Shown here: positions 1 to 6,924 of the stretch, piece by piece
Layout: every line of letters starts with the position of its first letter
Numbering within the stretch: the first letter of the stretch is position 1
Virus record (IMG/VR): IMGVR_UViG_2698536397_000007
Span: 1-9,116 of that record
From: a virus
Taxonomy: Duplodnaviria > Heunggongvirae > Uroviricota > Caudoviricetes
Strand: one strand, 5' to 3'
Length of the DNA stretch: 9,116 nucleotides
The notes under the pieces: model-generated
Seen by the model: the letters and a program-made list of their open reading frames with translations, nothing else
Told to the model about the DNA's origin: nothing
Databases searched by the model: none
Made by a program: the position numbers and the translations under genes

Positions 1-75
1 CACCCGCAAGGGCCAACGCCAATTGAATGGCTGAAACAGGAATACGAACGCCGGAAGGCAGCTGGTTTTATTTGA
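1..75 (+). CDS. 3' end of an upstream gene (partial; product unknown, possibly the last gene of the replication module)
   Basis: Frame open from the window edge to TGA 73-75 (…HPQGPTPIEWLKQEYERRKAAGFI*); no start codon inside the window. Product is a guess from position only. Confidence 0.35.
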   Translation, partial: HPQGPTPIEWLKQEYERRKAAGFI

Positions 76-108
76 ATCTGAGAAGCGATTTTGTAGGAGG
101 AAATTTTA

Positions 109-870
109 ATGGAAACCGTTTTTGACGCACTGAAAGCAATGGGAAAAGCCAGCTCTGTTGGACTGGCTGAGCGGCTTGATATCAGTCGTGAAGAGGTTCT
201 CAACGAACTGTGGGAACTCAAAAGAAATGGCGTTGTTGATAAAGCGGGTCACATCTGGTTTCTGGCTGGCGAAGGTGAATCCGGGGTAACCGAAGAGCAG
301 CCAGAACAGTCTGAAGTACCGGATGTGCTGACCGGGGAGGTCGAACAAAAAGTTACCGCAGACATGATGATTGAGTTTATCGGTCAGGAGGGGGCTAAAA
401 CGTGTGAGGAACTGGCGGATAAGTTCGGTGTTAGCATTCGCAAGGTTGCTTCCACGTTGGCGGTGGTAACCGCAACGGGACGCCTGGCACGCGTAAATCA
501 GAACGGTAAATTTCGTTACTGCATGCCGGGCGATAATTTACCAGCAGAGCCGAAAGCCGTGCCGGTAACGGAAAATGATGGTAAGGCCTTTCCTCAGCCA
601 GCAGGTGTTGCGTTACCAGTACAGGAATCTGCAACACAGGAAGATATTAAAACAGAAACAGTGGCGGACATTGTGCAGTCGTTGCCATCGTTTACCGAAA
701 CGCAAGCAGATGAGCTGATTTTTCTGTCCCTGTGCAGGGCAAACCTGGCGCTGCGCAGGGCGAAAAGTGATGTTCAGAAGTGGGAGCGAGTCTGTGCCGC
801 GCTGCGGGAACTGAACAAACACAGGGATATTCTCCGGGATATTACCGCCACCAGAGAGCTGCTGCGGTGA
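109..870 (+). CDS. Conserved lambdoid-prophage hypothetical protein with N-terminal winged-helix-like domain (DUF1627-like, family name from memory)
   Basis: ATG 109 preceded by AGGAGG at 95-100 (8-nt spacer); 253 aa; N-terminal segment [26 protein letters not shown] resembles a winged-helix fold, followed by an acidic linker; stop TGA 868-870 overlaps the next candidate start. Confidence 0.75.
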
Positions 871-1184
871 GTGGCTGGAAGAAGTGGCGCTGGGCGGAAA
901 TTATGATACTCCGGCAGTGTGCGGGAACGATGACAGTCGAAAGCATCGGCAGTCTGATTGGCCGTAGTGGGGCTGCCGTCAGGACGAAAGCGCGGGAACT
1001 GGGTATCTGCATGATGTTACGGGGTGATTATCACCAGTCAGCCAAATGTTCACAGCGTGATATTGAGCTGGCGCGGCAACTGCATCAGCGTGGCGTACCC
1101 CGACGGGAAATTGCCGAAAAGTTTGGGATGAAGTTGGGCGCAGTGAATAACTACGTTTATTTCGACAGGAGGGTTCAGGCGTGA
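867..1184 (+). CDS. Hypothetical small protein with two helix-turn-helix-like segments
   Basis: GTG 867 overlaps the upstream stop (GTGA); alternative in-frame ATG at 903. Segments [22 protein letters not shown] and [19 protein letters not shown] look HTH-like. Stop TGA 1182-1184 overlaps the next start. Start codon and function are uncertain. Confidence 0.5.
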
Positions 1185-1486
1185 GGGTGAGAATTTATAT
1201 CGCCGGTCCGATGACGGGATATGAAAATTTCAACCGTGAGGCGTTTCACAGGGCGGAAGAAGCACTGAAACGGGAAGGGCATACCGTTTTAAACCCGGCA
1301 GTACTTCCGGACGGACTGACACAGCCACACTACATGGATATTTGCATGGCGATGATACGCTGCGTGGATGCGATTTACATGCTGAAAGGCTGGCAGCGGT
1401 CGGCAGGCGCTAAGGCAGAACTGGCACTGGCGGAGAAACTGGGACATGCGGTTATTTTCCAGGAGGCAACCAGTGAGAAAAATTAA
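1181..1486 (+). CDS. DUF4406-like protein (nucleoside 2-deoxyribosyltransferase-like fold)
   Basis: GTG 1181 with AGGAGG at 1167-1172 (8-nt spacer); 101 aa; N-terminal IYIAGPMTG…NF…F…G…V.NP pattern typical of DUF4406/NDT-like proteins (recalled, not searched). Confidence 0.7.
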   Translation: MRVRIYIAGPMTGYENFNREAFHRAEEALKREGHTVLNPAVLPDGLTQPHYMDICMAMIRCVDAIYMLKGWQRSAGAKAELALAEKLGHAVIFQEATSEKN

Positions 1487-2036
1487 TTATCAGACGCTAC
1501 GTGAGATAGCAAAACTGGCAACCCAGGGCGAATGGGTCGCATTCATTTCGCCGGGCACTGATACATATGCGGTGCATACGCCGGGGGATGAACGTTGCGG
1601 AGACATTATCAAATGGCCTGGCTTTGATGACCAGAAAAATGCAGAGAACAACGCAGAATTTATTGCAGCTTTCAACCCTGAAGTAGTACAGGCACTGCTG
1701 GATGAACGGGAAGCCCAAAGCAAACGTATTGCAGAGCTGGAAGCTAATCTTGTGGCGCTGGCGGCGGAGAATGCACTTGCTCGTAAAGCAGTTCAGGCAT
1801 TCTGCGATGTTGTTGGCGACAACACCGAGGTTATCGCTGAGGAGGTTGGGCGAGATGGCGTTCTGGTTATCTTGGAGGCCATGAAAGCAACAGGAAATAT
1901 GCCTGCCACCGATGCTTTCCTGGCTGAAGTACGAGCGCAGGGCGTGGAGATGTTTGCGGAGTGTGCATACACACTTGAACATCATGATCACGCAGTAGCC
2001 TTCGCCGCTGAGCTTCGCAAAGGAGGCAACCAGTGA
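1473..2036 (+). CDS. Ead/Ea22-like prophage protein (paralog 1)
   Basis: GTG 1473 with AGGAGG at 1461-1466; the 17-nt start context aggaggcaaccagtgag is identical to that of the next gene (2021-2037). Conserved N-terminal Y-Q-LR…A-GEW and NAEFIAA-NP…LLDERE blocks are shared with the downstream paralog. The six-frame ATG at 1446 is a less likely start (no SD, 40-nt overlap). Confidence 0.7.
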   Translation: MRKINYQTLREIAKLATQGEWVAFISPGTDTYAVHTPGDERCGDIIKWPGFDDQKNAENNAEFIAAFNPEVVQALLDEREAQSKRIAELEANLVALAAENALARKAVQAFCDVVGDNTEVIAEEVGRDGVLVILEAMKATGNMPATDAFLAEVRAQGVEMFAECAYTLEHHDHAVAFAAELRKGGNQ

Positions 2037-2710
2037 GCAAGATTGACTATCAGGCATTGCGTGCTAAGGCAGAAAAAGCAACGTGTGGCGAGTGGTCGCT
2101 CGAATATGGAGAGGGACGATTTGATGGTGATGATGCGCTAATTCATCGTGAAGTTGCTGGATATATTCCCATTTGCAGAATTGAAGGAGCGCATCCTGAA
2201 AGCGGTTTCGATGAAGATTTCCAAATGGAACAGCAGGCCAATGCTGAATTCATCGCCGCAGCCAATCCAGCTACCGTGCTGGCGCTGCTGGATGAACGGG
2301 AAAGAAACCAGCAATACATCAAACGCCGCGACTAGGAGAACGAGGATATTGCGCTAACGGTAGGGAAGCTGCGTGTTGAGCTGGAAGCAGCAGAGAAGCG
2401 GATTGCTGAGCTGCAGGCGCGGGACGTTAAGCCAGTTGCATGGATGAGGAATGCTAACGTCACATCATTCATGTTGAGGTTCACAACCGATGAGAAATAT
2501 GCAGTTGAGCAATGGGGTGATGATGCAGTTGCCCTCTATCCACTCCCTGTAGCTTTCATCCCTGCATGCTTTACAGACGAAAGAAATCTCATGCATATCA
2601 ACGAGCGCGGGCGAGAAACGTCACTTATCTGGAGTAAGCAGAACTCAGACAGCGGCGACATTAAACTTTTTCGTATCGCCGCCGCAGCCGGTAAAGGAGA
2701 GGAATCATGA
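2033..2710 (+). pseudogene. Ead/Ea22-like paralog 2 interrupted by an in-frame TAG at 2333-2335
   Basis: GTG 2033 with the same SD as paralog 1. The frame runs 2033-2332, hits TAG at 2333-2335, then continues in the same frame with no further stop to TGA 2708-2710 (…YIKRRD*ENEDIALTVGKLRVELEAAEKRIAELQARDVKPVAW…). The downstream part has no SD of its own (first ATG at 2444). Confidence 0.55.
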
Positions 2711-3237
2711 GCACTATCACAAGAGAATGGCTGCAGCAGGCTATCAACGATTATGAAAGCGTTCGTGATGAGCTTCCTTTCGGGCTTGATGATTACCAGG
2801 GGAATATCCTGGCTTCCCTGCGTATCGCACTGGCATCTCTGGAAGCAGAGCCGGTGGCGTGGAAGGTAACATTCACGCAAATTGACCGTGAATATAACAC
2901 GTTCACTGGTATGTATTCTGACAAAGCAGAAGTCGAACGGTGGGTGCGGCTGCATAAAGCATGTAATTTTCGGGCAGATATAACACCGCTTTATACCGCC
3001 AAGCCAGTGCCGGTAACTCCGGATGGTTGGATAAGCTGTAGTGAGCGAATGCCGGATACCAAAACAGCCGTTCTTGTTGCCAGGGAGTTTGACAGGAAAG
3101 GTGACTGGCGAATGAAATGGGCGACTTACATCCCGGGGCATCCTGACGCTAATGATGGGTGGGTAGTACCTGGTGCGTCGTGGATACCATCACACTGGAT
3201 GCCGCTACCAGAACCGCCGAAGGAGGTGCGCCAATGA
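2707..3237 (+). CDS. DUF551-domain prophage protein
   Basis: ATG 2707 overlaps the upstream stop (ATGA), SD-like AGGAGA at 2695-2700; 176 aa; C-terminal WISCSERMPD…SHWMPLPEPPK matches the DUF551 signature as recalled. Confidence 0.75.
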   Translation: MSTITREWLQQAINDYESVRDELPFGLDDYQGNILASLRIALASLEAEPVAWKVTFTQIDREYNTFTGMYSDKAEVERWVRLHKACNFRADITPLYTAKPVPVTPDGWISCSERMPDTKTAVLVAREFDRKGDWRMKWATYIPGHPDANDGWVVPGASWIPSHWMPLPEPPKEVRQ

Positions 3238-3317
3238 GCTGGCCTGAGGCCTTCTCAAATGTTGGTATTGCAATGGCGGTGGCGCTGGTGGTGTATTCGA
3301 TTTGCCGCTGGGGATAA
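3234..3317 (+). CDS. Small hydrophobic peptide (27 aa, probable single transmembrane helix)
   Basis: ATG 3234 overlaps the DUF551 stop (ATGA) and has a perfect AGGAGG at 3221-3226 with a 7-nt spacer; encodes MSWPEAFSNVGIAMAVALVVYSICRWG, stop TAA 3315-3317. Too short for the supplied ORF track. Confidence 0.45.
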   Translation: MSWPEAFSNVGIAMAVALVVYSICRWG

Positions 3318-3327
3318 ATCGCCGAAA

Positions 3328-3361
3328 AAAGATCCCGCCACAAACATGAGCCGGGATCTTT
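3328..3361. terminator. Bidirectional intrinsic terminator between convergent transcription units
   Basis: 10-bp stem AAAGATCCCG (3328-3337) / CGGGATCTTT (3352-3361) with a 14-nt loop; A-run 3325-3330 upstream (a T-run on the minus strand) and T-rich sequence downstream. Lies between the plus-strand operon end (3317) and the minus-strand toxin gene end (3440). Confidence 0.5.
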
Positions 3362-3439
3362 GATTTATATAGCCTACGAATCCGCAGTAAGAGAGGGGCA
3401 GACGGTTTATTCTAACACCGGAATGATGTGGGTAAAAGT

Positions 3440-3739
3440 TTATAAGAAATCGGTTTCATAACTTTGCCCACCATGATAGATACCGACAATAAAGACTTTT
3501 CTGCCATCAACGGCAAAAGCAATAATCGTTCTGTGGCGGAAATGAGTTACCCGCATCCCCTGGCGAATATCATCGCGTTTATTGCCCCGATGCGGGAATG
3601 TAGAAAACCCATCAAGATAATCAAGAAGCGCATTGGCATAATTGTCAGCAATGACGTTCCCTGCTTTCTCCGTTATATATCTGTGCAGGTTGATTATTTG
3701 TTGTTCGGCCTCAGGAGTAATGATGACTTCATATGTCAT
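3440..3739 (-). CDS. ParE/RelE-superfamily type II toxin
   Basis: 99 aa (MTYEVIITPEAEQQI…RVTHFRHRTIIAFAVDGRKVFIVGIYHGGQSYETDFL), a size and pattern typical of ParE-like toxins; start 5 nt after the stop of the upstream RHH antitoxin gene on the same strand. Confidence 0.8.
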   Translation of the reverse strand: MTYEVIITPEAEQQIINLHRYITEKAGNVIADNYANALLDYLDGFSTFPHRGNKRDDIRQGMRVTHFRHRTIIAFAVDGRKVFIVGIYHGGQSYETDFL

Positions 3740-3744
3740 GCAGA

Positions 3745-4002
3745 TTACTTCCCGGATCGAATCGCGGCGCGAACCTGTGAAATGGAGCGTCCGTTGTTTG
3801 GGTTTTCGCGGATAGAATCAAGAGAGGGGGCGGCTGAATGCGTTAACCACGCTTCGATTGCTTTATCGCGCTCATTCAGTGCGCGAAGCCCTTCACGAAT
3901 GACCTCGCTTTCTGAAGCATAGGCACCGGAAGCCACACGGGCGCGCACCATGTCAGCCATCTCGTTAGTTAATGTAATGCTGAATTGTTGGGTTGTACGC
4001 AT
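3745..4002 (-). CDS. ParD-like ribbon-helix-helix antitoxin
   Basis: Start taken at ATG 4002-4000 (MRTTQQFSITLTNEMADMVRARVASG…) because GTGAGG lies 6 nt upstream on the minus strand; 85 aa. The longer six-frame ORF starting at 4065 has no SD. Antitoxin-then-toxin order is canonical. Confidence 0.75.
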   Translation of the reverse strand: MRTTQQFSITLTNEMADMVRARVASGAYASESEVIREGLRALNERDKAIEAWLTHSAAPSLDSIRENPNNGRSISQVRAAIRSGK

Positions 4003-4021
4003 GGTAAACCTCACGGAGTAG

Positions 4022-4065
4022 GATAGAACACTATTCGATGATAGCACGCTGCCTGTTGACGACAA
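4022..4065 (-). promoter_or_regulatory. Putative toxin-antitoxin promoter and operator
   Basis: On the minus strand: -35-like TTGTCG (plus 4060-4065), 16-bp spacer, -10 TATCAT (plus 4038-4043). Near the predicted transcription start are two GATAG direct repeats (4022-4026, 4039-4043) and an ATAG-n4-CTAT inverted repeat (4024-4035). A plus-strand TTGACG (4054-4059) suggests a divergent promoter. Hexamer matching by eye only. Confidence 0.3.
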
Positions 4066-4137
4066 CAGAAATCAGAGACAATATTGCCGCACGCCAGCCT
4101 GAACAACTGGCACCTGCTGCGCCAGCAGAGACAACCG

Positions 4138-4416
4138 ATGGCGCAAGATACCAAATTACACAATTCGGATAACTCCACCGCCCCTGCCAGCAGGCACGGG
4201 CGGCGTTCTCATGCATTCAAATCTGACTGGTTCCAGCATGACCCATGCACTGAAGAACAGGCCGAATGGCTGATCCAGTGCTACCGCAGACGTGGTTACG
4301 AGTTTCAGAAAGATCTCAGCTTCGATCGTCGTCACTGGATAATCTCCGTCAGGCTCCCTTATTCCGAACGCCCACCGCGTCCGTCCCGCACATTCCAGCA
4401 GCGCATCTGGAGGTAA
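4138..4416 (+). CDS. Hypothetical protein, translationally coupled to the DUF968 gene
   Basis: Open frame ending at TAA 4414-4416, 1 nt before the DUF968 GTG start, and containing that gene's GGAGG. Start uncertain: ATG 4138 or the six-frame TTG at 4084, neither with a strong SD. Confidence 0.45.
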   Translation: MAQDTKLHNSDNSTAPASRHGRRSHAFKSDWFQHDPCTEEQAEWLIQCYRRRGYEFQKDLSFDRRHWIISVRLPYSERPPRPSRTFQQRIWR

Positions 4417-4417
4417 C

Positions 4418-5476
4418 GTGCGGGTATTACTTCGACCTGTTCTGGTACCGGAACTCGGGATGGTGCTCCTTAAGCCGGGCCGTGAATCAATGTCAGCATT
4501 CCATAACGGCAGAATATTGGTGGAACCGGAACCGAAAAACATGCGCGGTCTGCCGTCCGGAGTCGTTCCTGCCGTTCGCCAGCCGCTGGCAGAGGATAAA
4601 ACATTACTGCCATTTTTCAGCGATGAGCGGGTTATTCGTGCAGCAGGTGGTGCAGGTGCACTGTCTGACTGGTTATTACGTCACGTGAAATCCTGCCAGT
4701 GGCCACACGGTGATTATCATCACAGCGAAACCGTCATTCACCGTTACGGTACCGGCGCGATGGTGTTGTGCTGGCACTGTGACAACCAGCTGCGCGACCA
4801 GACATCAGAATCACTCGATCAACTTGCTCAGCAGAATCTGGTTGCCTGGATGATTGACGTCATCCGTCACGCAATAAGCAGTACGCAGGAGAGGGAGTTA
4901 TCGCTGGCCGAATTATCCTGGTGGGCGGTCTGCAATCAGGTGGTGGATGCACTACCTGAGGCAGTAGTGCGTCGTTCGCTGGGATTACCAGCGGAAAAAA
5001 TCCGCTCCGTATACCGTGAGAGCGACATCGTACCGGGAGAGCAGGCCGCCACCAGCATACTGAAGCAGCGCACAAAAAATATTGCGCTGCCACTTCACGT
5101 CCACCAGCAACAAAATCCCCCCCAGGAAAAGACGTTAGTAAGCATCGCCGTTGATCCGGAGTCTCCGGCTCAGTACCTCCAGCGCCAGAAACCACAACGG
5201 GAAGAGATGCCTGTATACACGCGCTGGGTAAAAACGCAGAAATGCATGACGTGTGGCAATCAGGCAGATGATCCGCATCACATCATTGGTCATGGACTGG
5301 GAGGTATGGGAACAAAGGCTGACGATTTGTTTGTTATTCCGTTATGCCGTAAATGCCATAACGAACTACACGCCGGGGTAAAAGATTTTGAAGAGAAACA
5401 CGGCAGTCAGCTGTTGTTGCTGATTCGTTTTTTAATGCACGCGAGAAATTCGGGTGTTCTGAAGTGGAAAGCATAA
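4418..5476 (+). CDS. DUF968 (YdfU-like) protein with C-terminal HNH-type nuclease motif
   Basis: GTG 4418 with GGAGG at 4409-4413; 352 aa; C-terminus CMTCGNQADDPHHIIGHGLGG…DDLFVIPLCRKCHNELH is a CxxC…HH…CxxCH…H HNH/zinc-finger signature; stop TAA 5474-5476 abuts the rusA start. Same placement next to Q as ydfU in the E. coli K-12 Qin prophage (recalled). Confidence 0.85.
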   Translation: MRVLLRPVLVPELGMVLLKPGRESMSAFHNGRILVEPEPKNMRGLPSGVVPAVRQPLAEDKTLLPFFSDERVIRAAGGAGALSDWLLRHVKSCQWPHGDYHHSETVIHRYGTGAMVLCWHCDNQLRDQTSESLDQLAQQNLVAWMIDVIRHAISSTQERELSLAELSWWAVCNQVVDALPEAVVRRSLGLPAEKIRSVYRESDIVPGEQAATSILKQRTKNIALPLHVHQQQNPPQEKTLVSIAVDPESPAQYLQRQKPQREEMPVYTRWVKTQKCMTCGNQADDPHHIIGHGLGGMGTKADDLFVIPLCRKCHNELHAGVKDFEEKHGSQLLLLIRFLMHARNSGVLKWKA

Positions 5477-5842
5477 ATGACCGAGCGCATAGAATTTGTT
5501 TTGCCTTACCCGCCGACGGTGAACACTTACTGGCGACGCCGTGGCAGCACATATTTTATATCGGAGGAGGGAAAGCGCTATCGCCGGGCAGTGGCGCTTA
5601 TTGTTCGCCAGCAGCGGCTGAAATTAAGCCTGTCCGGACGGCTGGCAATAAAAATTATTGCAGAGCCACCGGATAAGCGTCGTCGTGACCTGGACAACAT
5701 TCTGAAAGCACCGCTGGATGCGCTGACGCATGCGGGAGTGCTCATTGATGACGAGCAGTTTGATGAAATCAATATTGTACGTGGTCAGCTTGTTCTTGGT
5801 GGTCGGCTGGGTGTGAAGATTTACAAAATTGAGAGTGAGTGA
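5477..5842 (+). CDS. rusA: RusA-family Holliday junction resolvase
   Basis: ATG 5477 immediately after the upstream TAA; 121 aa; LPYPPTVNTYW…DKRRRDLDNILKAPLDALTHAGVLIDDEQ matches the RusA signature with its conserved acidic residues. Confidence 0.9.
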   Translation: MTERIEFVLPYPPTVNTYWRRRGSTYFISEEGKRYRRAVALIVRQQRLKLSLSGRLAIKIIAEPPDKRRRDLDNILKAPLDALTHAGVLIDDEQFDEINIVRGQLVLGGRLGVKIYKIESE

Positions 5843-6411
5843 GCGTAAATATGATATATCCGGAAATTACAGGCAAAAGCGGCGAACATTTACGCCTGAA
5901 CACGCTGGAAGCAGTCTGGATCCAGGGGAAATTACGGATGTGGGGGCGGTGGTCGTATATCGGTGGGGGTAAATCCGGAAATATGTTTAACCGGTTACTG
6001 GTTTCGAAAAAGCTGACGAAAACAGCAGTTAATGAAGTTTTACGCAGAATGAAGAAATCTGGGCTGGATAAACCGGAACTTGAGGCATTTTTTCGGGATA
6101 TGACCAGAGGGAAGCAGAAGAGCTGGTTGTCACATTGTACAGACACAGAGGCGTTGATTATTGATCGCGTTATCAGTGAGGTGCTTGGGGAATATCCCGG
6201 GCTAATCAATATTCTCCGGCAAAGGTACGAAGGACGAGGAATGAGCAAACTGAAAATGGCCGAAAGGTTAAATGCAGATCATCCTGAGTGGACGTTGGTT
6301 ACGTGCAGACGCCGAATTGATCAGTGGTTGGGGATATCTGAATTTATGTTACATGCCCCCATGCGTATGGCTTTTGTTACAGAGAAAAAAATGTTGCAAA
6401 CTGATCAATAA
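5839..6411 (+). CDS. Putative late-gene antiterminator Q (phage 21/82 type, PF06530-like as recalled)
   Basis: GTG 5839 overlaps the rusA stop (GTGA); alternative ATG at 5851. 190 aa with an LE-VW…WGRW…G block reminiscent of Q21-type antiterminators. Position directly after DUF968/rusA and before a promoter-terminator unit fits Q. Identification is by synteny and weak motif recall. Confidence 0.55.
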   Translation: MSVNMIYPEITGKSGEHLRLNTLEAVWIQGKLRMWGRWSYIGGGKSGNMFNRLLVSKKLTKTAVNEVLRRMKKSGLDKPELEAFFRDMTRGKQKSWLSHCTDTEALIIDRVISEVLGEYPGLINILRQRYEGRGMSKLKMAERLNADHPEWTLVTCRRRIDQWLGISEFMLHAPMRMAFVTEKKMLQTDQ

Positions 6412-6422
6412 ACTGCTTCAAT
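6394..6422 (+). promoter_or_regulatory. Candidate late promoter (PR'-like)
   Basis: TTGCAA (6394-6399), 17-bp spacer, TTCAAT (6417-6422), straddling the Q stop codon. Followed by CGCAAG(G) direct repeats at 6435-6441, 6459-6464 and 6471-6479, and a terminator about 75 nt downstream. Weak hexamers. Confidence 0.25.
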
Positions 6423-6482
6423 CCGTATAAGCTTCGCAAGGCTGTATCGCGAGGCGAAACGCAAGTTTTTTCGCACAAGGAA

Positions 6483-6504
6483 GCCACCGGAAGGTGGTTT
6501 TTTT
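6483..6504 (+). terminator. Intrinsic terminator (tR'-like) downstream of Q
   Basis: Stem CCACC (6484-6488) / GGTGG (6493-6497), loop GGAA, followed by seven T (6498-6504). Confidence 0.5.
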
Positions 6505-6627
6505 GTGTCCGTAATATACAGCAGCGCAATAAATTCGCTGGTGGTTATTAATACCGTTCTTTCAGCTTGCTGGCTTTTTCGACAAGAGTTATTGGTGTGT
6601 CACGTTAACCGGAAAAGGGGAAAAGAC

Positions 6628-6825
6628 ATGCTGAAACAGCAGGATATGACAGAAACCGCCAGGGCAGTGTTTAATGAATTAAGCGTCACCGAACCGGCGA
6701 CAGTCGGGGAGATTGCGCAGAATACTTACCTTTCACGCGAACGCTGTCAGTTAATACTGACCCAGCTTGTTATGGCGGGTCTGGCAGACTATCAGTTCGG
6801 TTGTTACAGACGCCTTCAGTCCTGA
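6628..6825 (+). CDS. Small hypothetical protein (65 aa), possible winged-helix/HTH DNA-binding protein
   Basis: ATG 6628 with AAGGGG at 6615-6620 (7-nt spacer); MLKQQDMTETARAVFNELSVTEPATVGEIAQNTYLSRERCQLILTQLVMAGL…; stop TGA 6823-6825 lies inside a terminator stem. The six-frame GTG start at 6505 sits in the upstream terminator T-tract and was not used. Confidence 0.55.
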   Translation: MLKQQDMTETARAVFNELSVTEPATVGEIAQNTYLSRERCQLILTQLVMAGLADYQFGCYRRLQS

Positions 6826-6838
6826 AGGCTTTTTTATT
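6812..6838 (+). terminator. Intrinsic terminator
   Basis: Perfect 8-bp stem GCCTTCAG (6812-6819) / CTGAAGGC (6822-6829), 2-nt loop, followed by TTTTTTATTT. Confidence 0.6.
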
Positions 6839-6924
6839 TGTGGTAAATGGGCGGCTGGTGGGTGTTAGGGGCACTCACCAGCCATCTGCTCATGCGTCCG
6901 GATCACAAGCAAACCTCAGGCCCA

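Follow-up and report, generated by a model that had tools for sequence, protein, structure and literature searches.

The locus

We analysed a 9,116-nt stretch of DNA (positions 1 to 9,116 of the IMG/VR virus record IMGVR_UViG_2698536397_000007; hereafter the window), which is the late-regulatory region of an Escherichia coli lambdoid prophage. The subject of this work is a 111-nt unit at 6394-6504 that begins near the end of a DUF1133 coding sequence, still inside it, and combines a putative late promoter with an intrinsic terminator a short distance downstream. The DUF1133 gene (5851-6411, + strand) codes for a homologue, 186-190 amino acids long, of the phage 21 type antiterminator Q. It is preceded by a DUF968 gene (4418-5476, +) and by rusA, coding for RusA (5477-5842, +), and thus occupies the same slot as Q in the relatives. 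Its reading frame is open from a GTG at 5839, and the RefSeq homologues begin at the ATG at 5851. The best match in E. coli was a Shiga toxin (Stx) 2b prophage, at 99.5% over 5800-6900.

The upstream protein is related to Q21

The product of 5851-6411 matched Pfam DUF1133 (PF06576) with E=7e-104 and, in addition, PF06530, 'Phage antitermination protein Q', at 33.5 bits with a cutoff of 26. The relation was found to be reciprocal, as the antiterminator of phage 21, Q21, is itself a PF06530 protein with a sub-threshold match to DUF1133. The Q proteins of lambda and SfV and those of the QuuQ type fall into another Pfam family, PF03589. Among all PDB sequences, the sole meaningful match to the single sequence was Q21 (6P18, 6JNX; E=5e-5), and a profile of 26 homologues searched against the PDB reached Q21 (6P18) with E=6e-8. 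A comparison of DUF1133 with Q21 by hhalign gave a probability of 96.4% over 133 columns, corresponding to Q21 residues 6-151, with 30% identity. The DUF1133 protein contains a helix-turn-helix (HTH) related to sigma region 4 (10.1101/651190). In the alignment both helices of the Q21 motif are kept in DUF1133, the TCRR recognition helix included. By sequence, the DUF1133 protein is a member of the Q21 family with a variant DNA-binding loop.

The names of the homologues in the databases say little about such a role. Nearly all are entered as 'DUF1133 family protein', a few as 'antiterminator', and UniRef has one 'Late gene regulator'. Still, an antiterminator role of DUF1133 was already suspected from remote homology before the present work: Table 1 of a survey of Stx phages enters DUF1133 as 'Q antiterminator (HHPred)' (PMC8136144).

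Putative promoter, candidate Q site and pause element

A preliminary description of this DNA had pointed to a promoter-like element over the Q stop codon and to an intrinsic terminator about 75 nt further on. Both were recovered in our analysis, the former as TTGCAA-17-(TG)TTCAAT at 6394-6422, overlapping the stop at 6409-6411, and the latter as a hairpin followed by seven T at 6480-6504, about 75 nt past the predicted start. The putative -35 element TTGCAA (6394-6399, + strand) lies inside the Q-homologue coding sequence. The 17-nt spacer ACTGATCAATAAACTGC (6400-6416) contains the stop TAA (6409-6411) and, at 6414-6415, the TG of an extended -10 element (6414-6422), in which the TG is followed by one base and then by the hexamer TTCAAT (6417-6422). 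The motif TG-N-TTNAAT is kept across the family.

The first eight bases of the spacer, ACTGATCA (6400-6407, +), make up the first subsite of a candidate Q-binding element (QBE), with six of the eight bases equal to those of the phage 21 half-site QBEu (ATTGAGCA). A possible second subsite, degenerate in sequence, follows at 6408-6415 (+). The relatives have ATTGAGCA, AATGAGCA or AGTGAGCA at the position of the 8-mer, including exact Q21 half-sites in two of them (ATTGAGCA in L015 and AATGAGCA in L014). We infer that Q would bind at the 6400-6407 8-mer.

Immediately downstream of the promoter, the -10-like hexamer TAAGCT (6428-6433, +; of the form TANNNT) is a candidate sigma-dependent pause element (SDPE) and is identical to the SDPE hexamer of phage 21. 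Counted between their first bases, the 8-mer and TAAGCT are 28 bp apart both in the window (6400 to 6428) and in phage 21 (1668 to 1696). The transcription start was predicted at 6427-6430 (+) from the promoter geometry and the phage 21 annotation. The usual distance from the -10 element to the start is 7-8 nt, which would put the start at A6429 or A6430, and analogy with the annotated phage 21 start would put it at A6427.

Predicted leader and terminator

The predicted leader begins with a conserved core, TAAGCTTCGCAAGGCTGTATCGCGAGGCGAA (6428-6458, +), which is near-invariant among the relatives of the same leader class (class A, see below) at protein identities of 48-99%. The core contains a small 5' hairpin in which 6431-6434 pair with 6439-6442. 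Among the relatives the 5' hairpins of the leader show no covariation, the pairs being invariant, and this neither supports nor refutes a conserved RNA structure. Since the pairs do not covary, we regard the leader core as constrained as a sequence; it would be the region that a paused RNA polymerase covers. The next segment (6459-6479, +), with a run of six U and the second and third copies of CGCA(C)AG, is variable and was not conserved beyond the E. coli variants of the window type.

The intrinsic terminator (6480-6504, +), the putative equivalent of tR', has the form GAAGCCACC-GGAA-GGTGGTTTT followed by T7. Its core stem CCACC (6484-6488) is separated by the loop GGAA from the arm GGTGG (6493-6497); A-U and G-U pairs allow a longer stem spanning 6480-6501, and the T7 run takes up 6498-6504. 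The stem carries compensatory changes among relatives. For the predicted RNA 6425-6506 we obtained a folding energy of -31.7 kcal/mol, with z = -4.0 versus shuffled sequences. A search of Rfam over 6394-6504 found no family at E<=1; a match to 'rpsB sRNA' at 6510-6626 (E=0.74) was weak and was taken as chance.

The direct CGCAAG repeats of the preliminary description are present, at 6435-6440 and 6460-6465, together with TTCGCA at 6433 and 6470, but they do not stand as a Q-binding site. By our own estimate, about 0.6 repeats of a 6-mer are expected by chance in ~75 nt, and only the first copy falls in the conserved leader core. We therefore rejected the repeats as functional elements; the likely site of Q is the promoter spacer.

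Conservation among homologous loci

The comparison covered 31 loci, one genome per species, plus 80 viral contigs. We scored a composite pattern, TTGNNN-N17-N6-N5-TANNNT, in the 28 non-redundant genome loci, which come from many Enterobacteriaceae. In 24 of the 28 loci the pattern was found where the homologous gene ends, always with a spacer of 17 nt and with TANNNT exactly 5 nt past the -10 hexamer. In 23 of the 24 pattern loci an intrinsic terminator was situated 38-53 nt past the predicted start, with a predicted RNA of 66-87 nt. Outside the gene ends, both strands of these 362 kb together had 79 matches to the pattern, four of which were accompanied by a terminator; the enrichment at the gene ends was about 40-fold.

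The pattern was kept although the flanking sequences are unrelated. We also observed that the stop codon of the Q homologue moves with respect to the -35 element, from -22 to +24, that is, from 22 nt before the -35 up to the inside of the -10 hexamer; because of this shift, coding constraint cannot explain the pattern. The terminator stems of the relatives differ in sequence. Two leader classes can be told apart by the first ~30 nt, which are near-invariant within each: TANGCTTCGCAAAGCTGTATCGCGAGGCGAA in class A, which includes the window, and TAGGCTCGGGACGTTAAAGCGAACTGAGCA in class B. The remainder of the leader varies.

In class B loci (L011-L024 and L029; ~3555-3585) the promoter encodes the last ~8 codons of Q. 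Here the QBE-like 8-mer and the spacer code for the C-terminal tail of the protein (for example, ...LQSEQESA), and the stop TAA is inside the -10 hexamer TTAAAT; the tail of the protein and its own putative DNA target are thus the same nucleotides.

A blastn search of the unit against phage genomes found only the promoter and the leader core, in a few uncharacterised phages. The segment 6408-6458 of the window (promoter and leader core) is 86-88% identical in several isolated Escherichia siphophages of the vB_EcoS series and in a record whose host label is unexpected, Actinobacillus phage vB_Apl-pPE4 (the records include ON470609, ON470614, PP818812 and others).

Pairing of the putative recognition helix with the 8-mer

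The helix aligned to the recognition helix of Q21 (TCRREVD) comes in several variants, each with its own 8-mer after the -35 element. The helix TCRRR is found with A-N-TGA(G/T)C(A/C), for example ANTGAGCA, in 13 distinct loci, including the two with exact Q21 half-sites (L014, L015). The helix TCESR goes with A(A/G)TTGCGC (L022, L024, L026, L029), TCEKRIA with T(C/T)TTACG(C/T), for example TTTTACGC (L006-L008 and the L061-type group), TCERRIE with TTTGACGT (the L090-type group) and TCRNRID with ATTTATCC (L027, L028). The pairing is consistent in both leader classes. Since variants of the helix pair with distinct 8-mers, the assignment of the 8-mer as the Q-binding element is supported.

One subgroup of close homologues, 75-79% identical (L003-L005, L113, L115-L117), has a near-consensus promoter with the stop TGA inside the -35 element. 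It is followed by a short leader with two hairpins and then by a terminator. The spacer of this subgroup contains TTATCC, as in the TCRNRID loci L027 and L028.

Comparison with phage 21, lambda and Stx phages

For phage 21 we used the annotation of GenBank OL657228 with the coordinates of our locus L036, along with the structures 6P18-6P1C and 6JNX. In phage 21 the stop of Q is at 1653, the -35 element TTGACA at 1660-1665, the two Q-binding 8-mers ATTGAGCA and AATGAGCA (QBEu and QBEd) at 1668-1683, the -10 element at 1683-1688, the start at A1695, the pause element TAAGCT from 1696 and the end of the terminator at 1744. The corresponding positions in the window are 6409-6411 for the stop, 6394-6399 for TTGCAA, 6400-6407 for ACTGATCA, 6417-6422 for TTCAAT, 6427-6430 for the predicted start, 6428-6433 for TAAGCT and 6504 for the end of the terminator. 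In both, the promoter begins within a few bases of the Q stop, the spacer carries an 8-mer of the type A-N-TGAGCA with TAAGCT 28 bp further on, a very short leader (~50 nt in phage 21, ~75 nt in the window) ends in an intrinsic terminator, and late genes lie downstream. The window differs in that its -35 and -10 elements are shifted by 2 bp relative to QBE and SDPE. Also unlike phage 21, it has a -10 of the form TTNAAT with an upstream TG and a degenerate second half-site. The leader and terminator sequences of the two are unrelated.

The preliminary description had likened the unit to those of lambda and the Stx phages. The analogy is sound with respect to logic: lambda has a -10 element TAAATT, then 6 nt, then AACGAT, where the window has its -10 element, 5 nt and TAAGCT, so that in either case the (in the window, candidate) pause element is at the very beginning of the transcript. 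With respect to the protein it does not hold, as Q here is of the phage 21 type (PF06530/DUF1133) and lambda Q is of PF03589. We found no sequence similarity to the lambda PR' unit or its 6S RNA. The terminated RNA of lambda has 194 nt, and on inspection of the sequence the tR' hairpin was located ~190 nt past the start. Since Q is of the phage 21 type, the best model for the unit is PR'21, with its terminated RNA of ~50 nt.

StxS, a small RNA (sRNA) from PR' of Stx1 and Stx2a phages, is made as a 258-nt PR'-tR' transcript from which RNase E produces a 74-nt RNA (PMC7547250). The likeness in size to the RNA predicted here is a coincidence, because the 74-nt species is the processed product of a longer precursor. 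StxS belongs to a clade of Q proteins of 144 amino acids, and the window unit to Q of the DUF1133 type; what they share is a short RNA, in the window a predicted one, that is initiated constitutively at the late promoter and ends before toxin or late genes. In a search of the phage collection at blastn sensitivity the unit had no similarity to Stx1 and Stx2a phage records. An identical unit stands upstream of stx2b in a clinical isolate, strain 2015C-3121.

Our literature search, incomplete in that it missed the DUF1133 entry in PMC8136144, yielded no account of such a cassette for a DUF1133-type Q, be it promoter, Q-binding site, pause element, terminator or short RNA.

Genes downstream of the unit

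The first gene 3' of the unit (6628-6825, +) codes for a 65-amino-acid TrmB-like HTH protein, as judged from annotated homologues in the Stx2b prophage (L001), phiP27 and SfV and from a weak match to Pfam TrmB. The open reading frame (ORF) has its own terminator at 6812-6829 in the consensus scan. It is followed by a DNA methylase (6976-8015, +), by two tandem matches to Rfam STnc100 (8112-8320 and 8382-8590, +) and by a sialate esterase gene (from 8818, +), inside which the window ends. In the Stx2b prophage the downstream order is methylase, transfer RNAs (tRNAs), stx2b, esterase, holin and lysozyme.

In five loci (L010, L013, L017, L026, L007) holin and endolysin genes come directly past the terminator. 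The window and its E. coli relatives have a cargo module between the switch and the lysis genes, made up of the TrmB-like ORF, the methylase, either tRNAs with stx or STnc100, and the esterase. The cargo module is common to phages with other Q types, namely SfV, Stx2_EH1910 and phiP27. In the alignment, each of the three has an intrinsic terminator where the window has its own, and it is there that their homology to the window starts. The switch can therefore be described as that part of a mosaic which is specific to Q, joined to the rest at tR'. Further + strand terminators in the window are at 6812, 8290, 8559 and 8692, and they fit a need for processive antitermination.

The ~120 nt that lead from the terminator to the TrmB-like ORF (6496-6630; for example, TTGCTGGCTTTTTCGACAAGAGTTATTGGT) are near-invariant across three Q types (L034, L035, L002) and more conserved than the flanking genes. 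Possibly this segment is a leader, a ribosome-binding region or another regulatory site.

Compared with the intact gene of 352 amino acids in the Stx2b prophage, the methylase lacks one base in each of two G runs (~7386 and ~7907), so that it falls into two frames (6976-7437 and 7317-8015). It is either a pseudogene or the result of homopolymer sequencing errors in the source assembly.

The two STnc100 copies scored 131 and 183 bits, with a gathering score of 47. Each has TTGAC(A/G) ~13 nt upstream and a strong terminator at its end (8290-8309 and 8559-8580). In the Stx2b prophage the segment of the first copy is replaced by tRNA-Ile/Arg/Arg and stx2b, and the second copy is kept before the esterase gene. 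A preprint links STnc100/PasD to Q genes of the PF03589 type and to esterase genes. Possibly the two copies in the window are late-leader RNAs that belong to a different type of Q and have been orphaned. We rejected them as the real late promoter: the window has no PF03589-type Q, and the Stx2b prophage has one copy replaced by the tRNAs and stx2b. They are better seen as extra terminated units that a Q-modified polymerase must cross. A strong terminator on the minus strand (8598-8619, GCCCGCGTCTCCCGGCGCGGGC followed by T7) is located directly past the second copy, although no gene that precedes it on that strand could be identified in the window. Another + strand terminator, at 8692-8707, is just before the esterase gene.

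Discussion

We hold it to be highly probable that the 6394-6504 unit is a late-gene antitermination cassette of a lambdoid prophage whose Q, a DUF1133 protein, belongs to the phage 21 Q family. The cassette is of an ordinary kind, but it had not been mapped before for this widespread Q type. The protein homology to Q21, the motif identities, the conserved architecture and the spacing were all computed. The preliminary description had taken the unit for a Q-dependent PR'-tR' cassette, and that reading is supported here, as all of its features at the level of the sequence are present and conserved.

The activity of the promoter, the start point, the pause, the binding of Q and the Q-dependent readthrough we infer from the Q21 and lambda systems (10.1101/651190). 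On that model, host sigma-70 RNA polymerase would initiate constitutively near 6427-6430, from a promoter that overlaps the last codons of Q. Sigma would re-bind TAAGCT at 6428-6433, and the polymerase would pause about 16-18 nt past the start. When Q is absent, transcription would terminate at 6480-6504, releasing an RNA of ~75 nt. Once accumulated, Q would bind the spacer 8-mer or 8-mers (6400-6415), 28 bp upstream of the pause element, and load onto the paused polymerase, which would become terminator-resistant. Transcription would then cross 6480-6504 and, after it, the terminators at 6812, 8290, 8559 and 8692. Such readthrough would extend transcription to the TrmB-like gene, to the methylase and esterase genes and on to those for lysis and structure, and in close relatives also to stx2b.

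Several observations weigh against this interpretation. With respect to the protein, the HT[loop]H motif of Q21 has ~13 residues (VARPRKMLCRGGG...) in the loop contacting the minor groove that are missing in DUF1133, and for this reason DNA recognition may differ from that of Q21. An AlphaFold2 model from 24 close homologues had a mean predicted local distance difference test score (pLDDT) of 55, too poor to test the fold, and a Foldseek search of the PDB with this model gave nothing below E=2.9. With respect to the Q site, the 8-mer of the window has T at position 6, where the consensus of the family has G, and no convincing second subsite was seen in the window sequence at 6408-6415. The association of helices with 8-mers could be linkage by descent, because the two are only ~100 bp apart. 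The subgroup with the near-consensus promoter (TTGACT-18-TATATT) has no TANNNT at the family position. Finally, no transcript or Hfq records for the locus were found in the literature.

The promoter itself raises further objections of the same kind. The -10 hexamer TTCAAT does not have the nearly universal A at -11, and the start at 6427-6430 is therefore a prediction only. A consensus promoter scan listed no promoter at the site, because the hexamer has T, not A, at position 2. The scan listed the 6480-6504 hairpin on the minus strand only; it also missed the annotated PR'21 with its terminator and the lambda tR', so that its silence is uninformative. The hexamer TAAGCT could be the true -10 element, which would move the start to ~6440. 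Among the relatives, however, there was no conserved -35 element 17 nt upstream of it, and the TG-N extended motif before this position occurs in class B relatives, not in the window.

Among the alternatives, the first is that of a stand-alone prophage gene for an sRNA of the Hfq type, with its own constitutive promoter and terminator and unrelated to antitermination, the late genes being driven from elsewhere. The predicted RNA does fold well (z = -4.0) and has features typical of an sRNA, namely a hairpin at the 5' end, six consecutive U in its interior and a terminator ending in U7; moreover, prophage regions of this sort are rich in sRNAs, such as STnc100 in the window and the Pas sRNAs. 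Yet conservation is limited to the first ~30 nt, which carry the pause motif, and the remainder varies, while the unit travels with a Q21 homologue and keeps the QBE-SDPE geometry of Q21. In the relatives we saw no other late promoter or Q gene before the lysis genes. We judge this alternative improbable. Nor need it exclude antitermination, for StxS shows that the terminated RNA of a PR' promoter can function as an sRNA as well (PMC7547250).

Alternatively, the DUF1133 protein could be an activator of late genes that acts on a weak promoter, with the hairpin being an attenuator or the end of an early operon. A -10 element without A at -11 would suit an activator-dependent promoter, the HTH related to sigma region 4 (10.1101/651190) would be compatible with such a protein, and the 'Late gene regulator' of UniRef is named in this sense. 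However, with a conserved intrinsic terminator 38-53 nt past the predicted start in 23 of 24 loci, simple activation would not suffice, the four additional terminators before the late genes call for processive antitermination, and the TANNNT motif with its 28-bp spacing to the 8-mer matches the Q21 loading site. We thus think it quite improbable that the protein works in this way.

That the promoter match is due to chance, and the hairpin is the terminator of an early-right operon ending with the DUF1133 gene, deserves hardly any credence. In its favour, hexamers that resemble promoter elements are frequent where intergenic DNA is AT-rich, the relaxed pattern occurred 79 times elsewhere in the 362 kb and the consensus scan was silent at the site. 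Against it, this geometry recurs in 24 of 28 loci although their flanks are unrelated and their stop codons shift, phage 21 has the identical pause hexamer, and in phages with bona fide Q genes a terminator aligns to this very position.

Beyond the antitermination cassette, a more far-reaching proposal can be made, which we put forward as a tentative and rather doubtful one. The ~75-nt leader (~6429-6504) may be an abundant, constitutive, Hfq-binding sRNA of the lysogen, similar to StxS but unrelated to it in sequence, whose targets in trans could be mRNAs of the host or of the toxin. The Q proteins of the DUF1133 type, for their part, may form at least five natural and mutually orthogonal pairs of helix and QBE on one fixed 28-bp loading geometry.

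The 111-nt unit was present in 614 of 5,426 complete E. coli genomes (~11%), including O157:H7, O145:H28 and O111 strains. It is unannotated in O157:H7 and other genomes, where the features under the match are 'none' and the RefSeq label of Q is 'DUF1133 family protein'. In an older study, phages with stx2b, stx2d2 and stx2g were noted to have similar Q proteins and to be poorly inducible (PMC3491183).

A mapped promoter, Q site, pause element and terminator would give a handle on the control of toxin and lysis genes in these phages, and the analysis nominates a candidate prophage sRNA. The naturally diverged pairs of helix and DNA site, in an antiterminator family that is structurally characterised, could serve to probe how Q21-type proteins read DNA.

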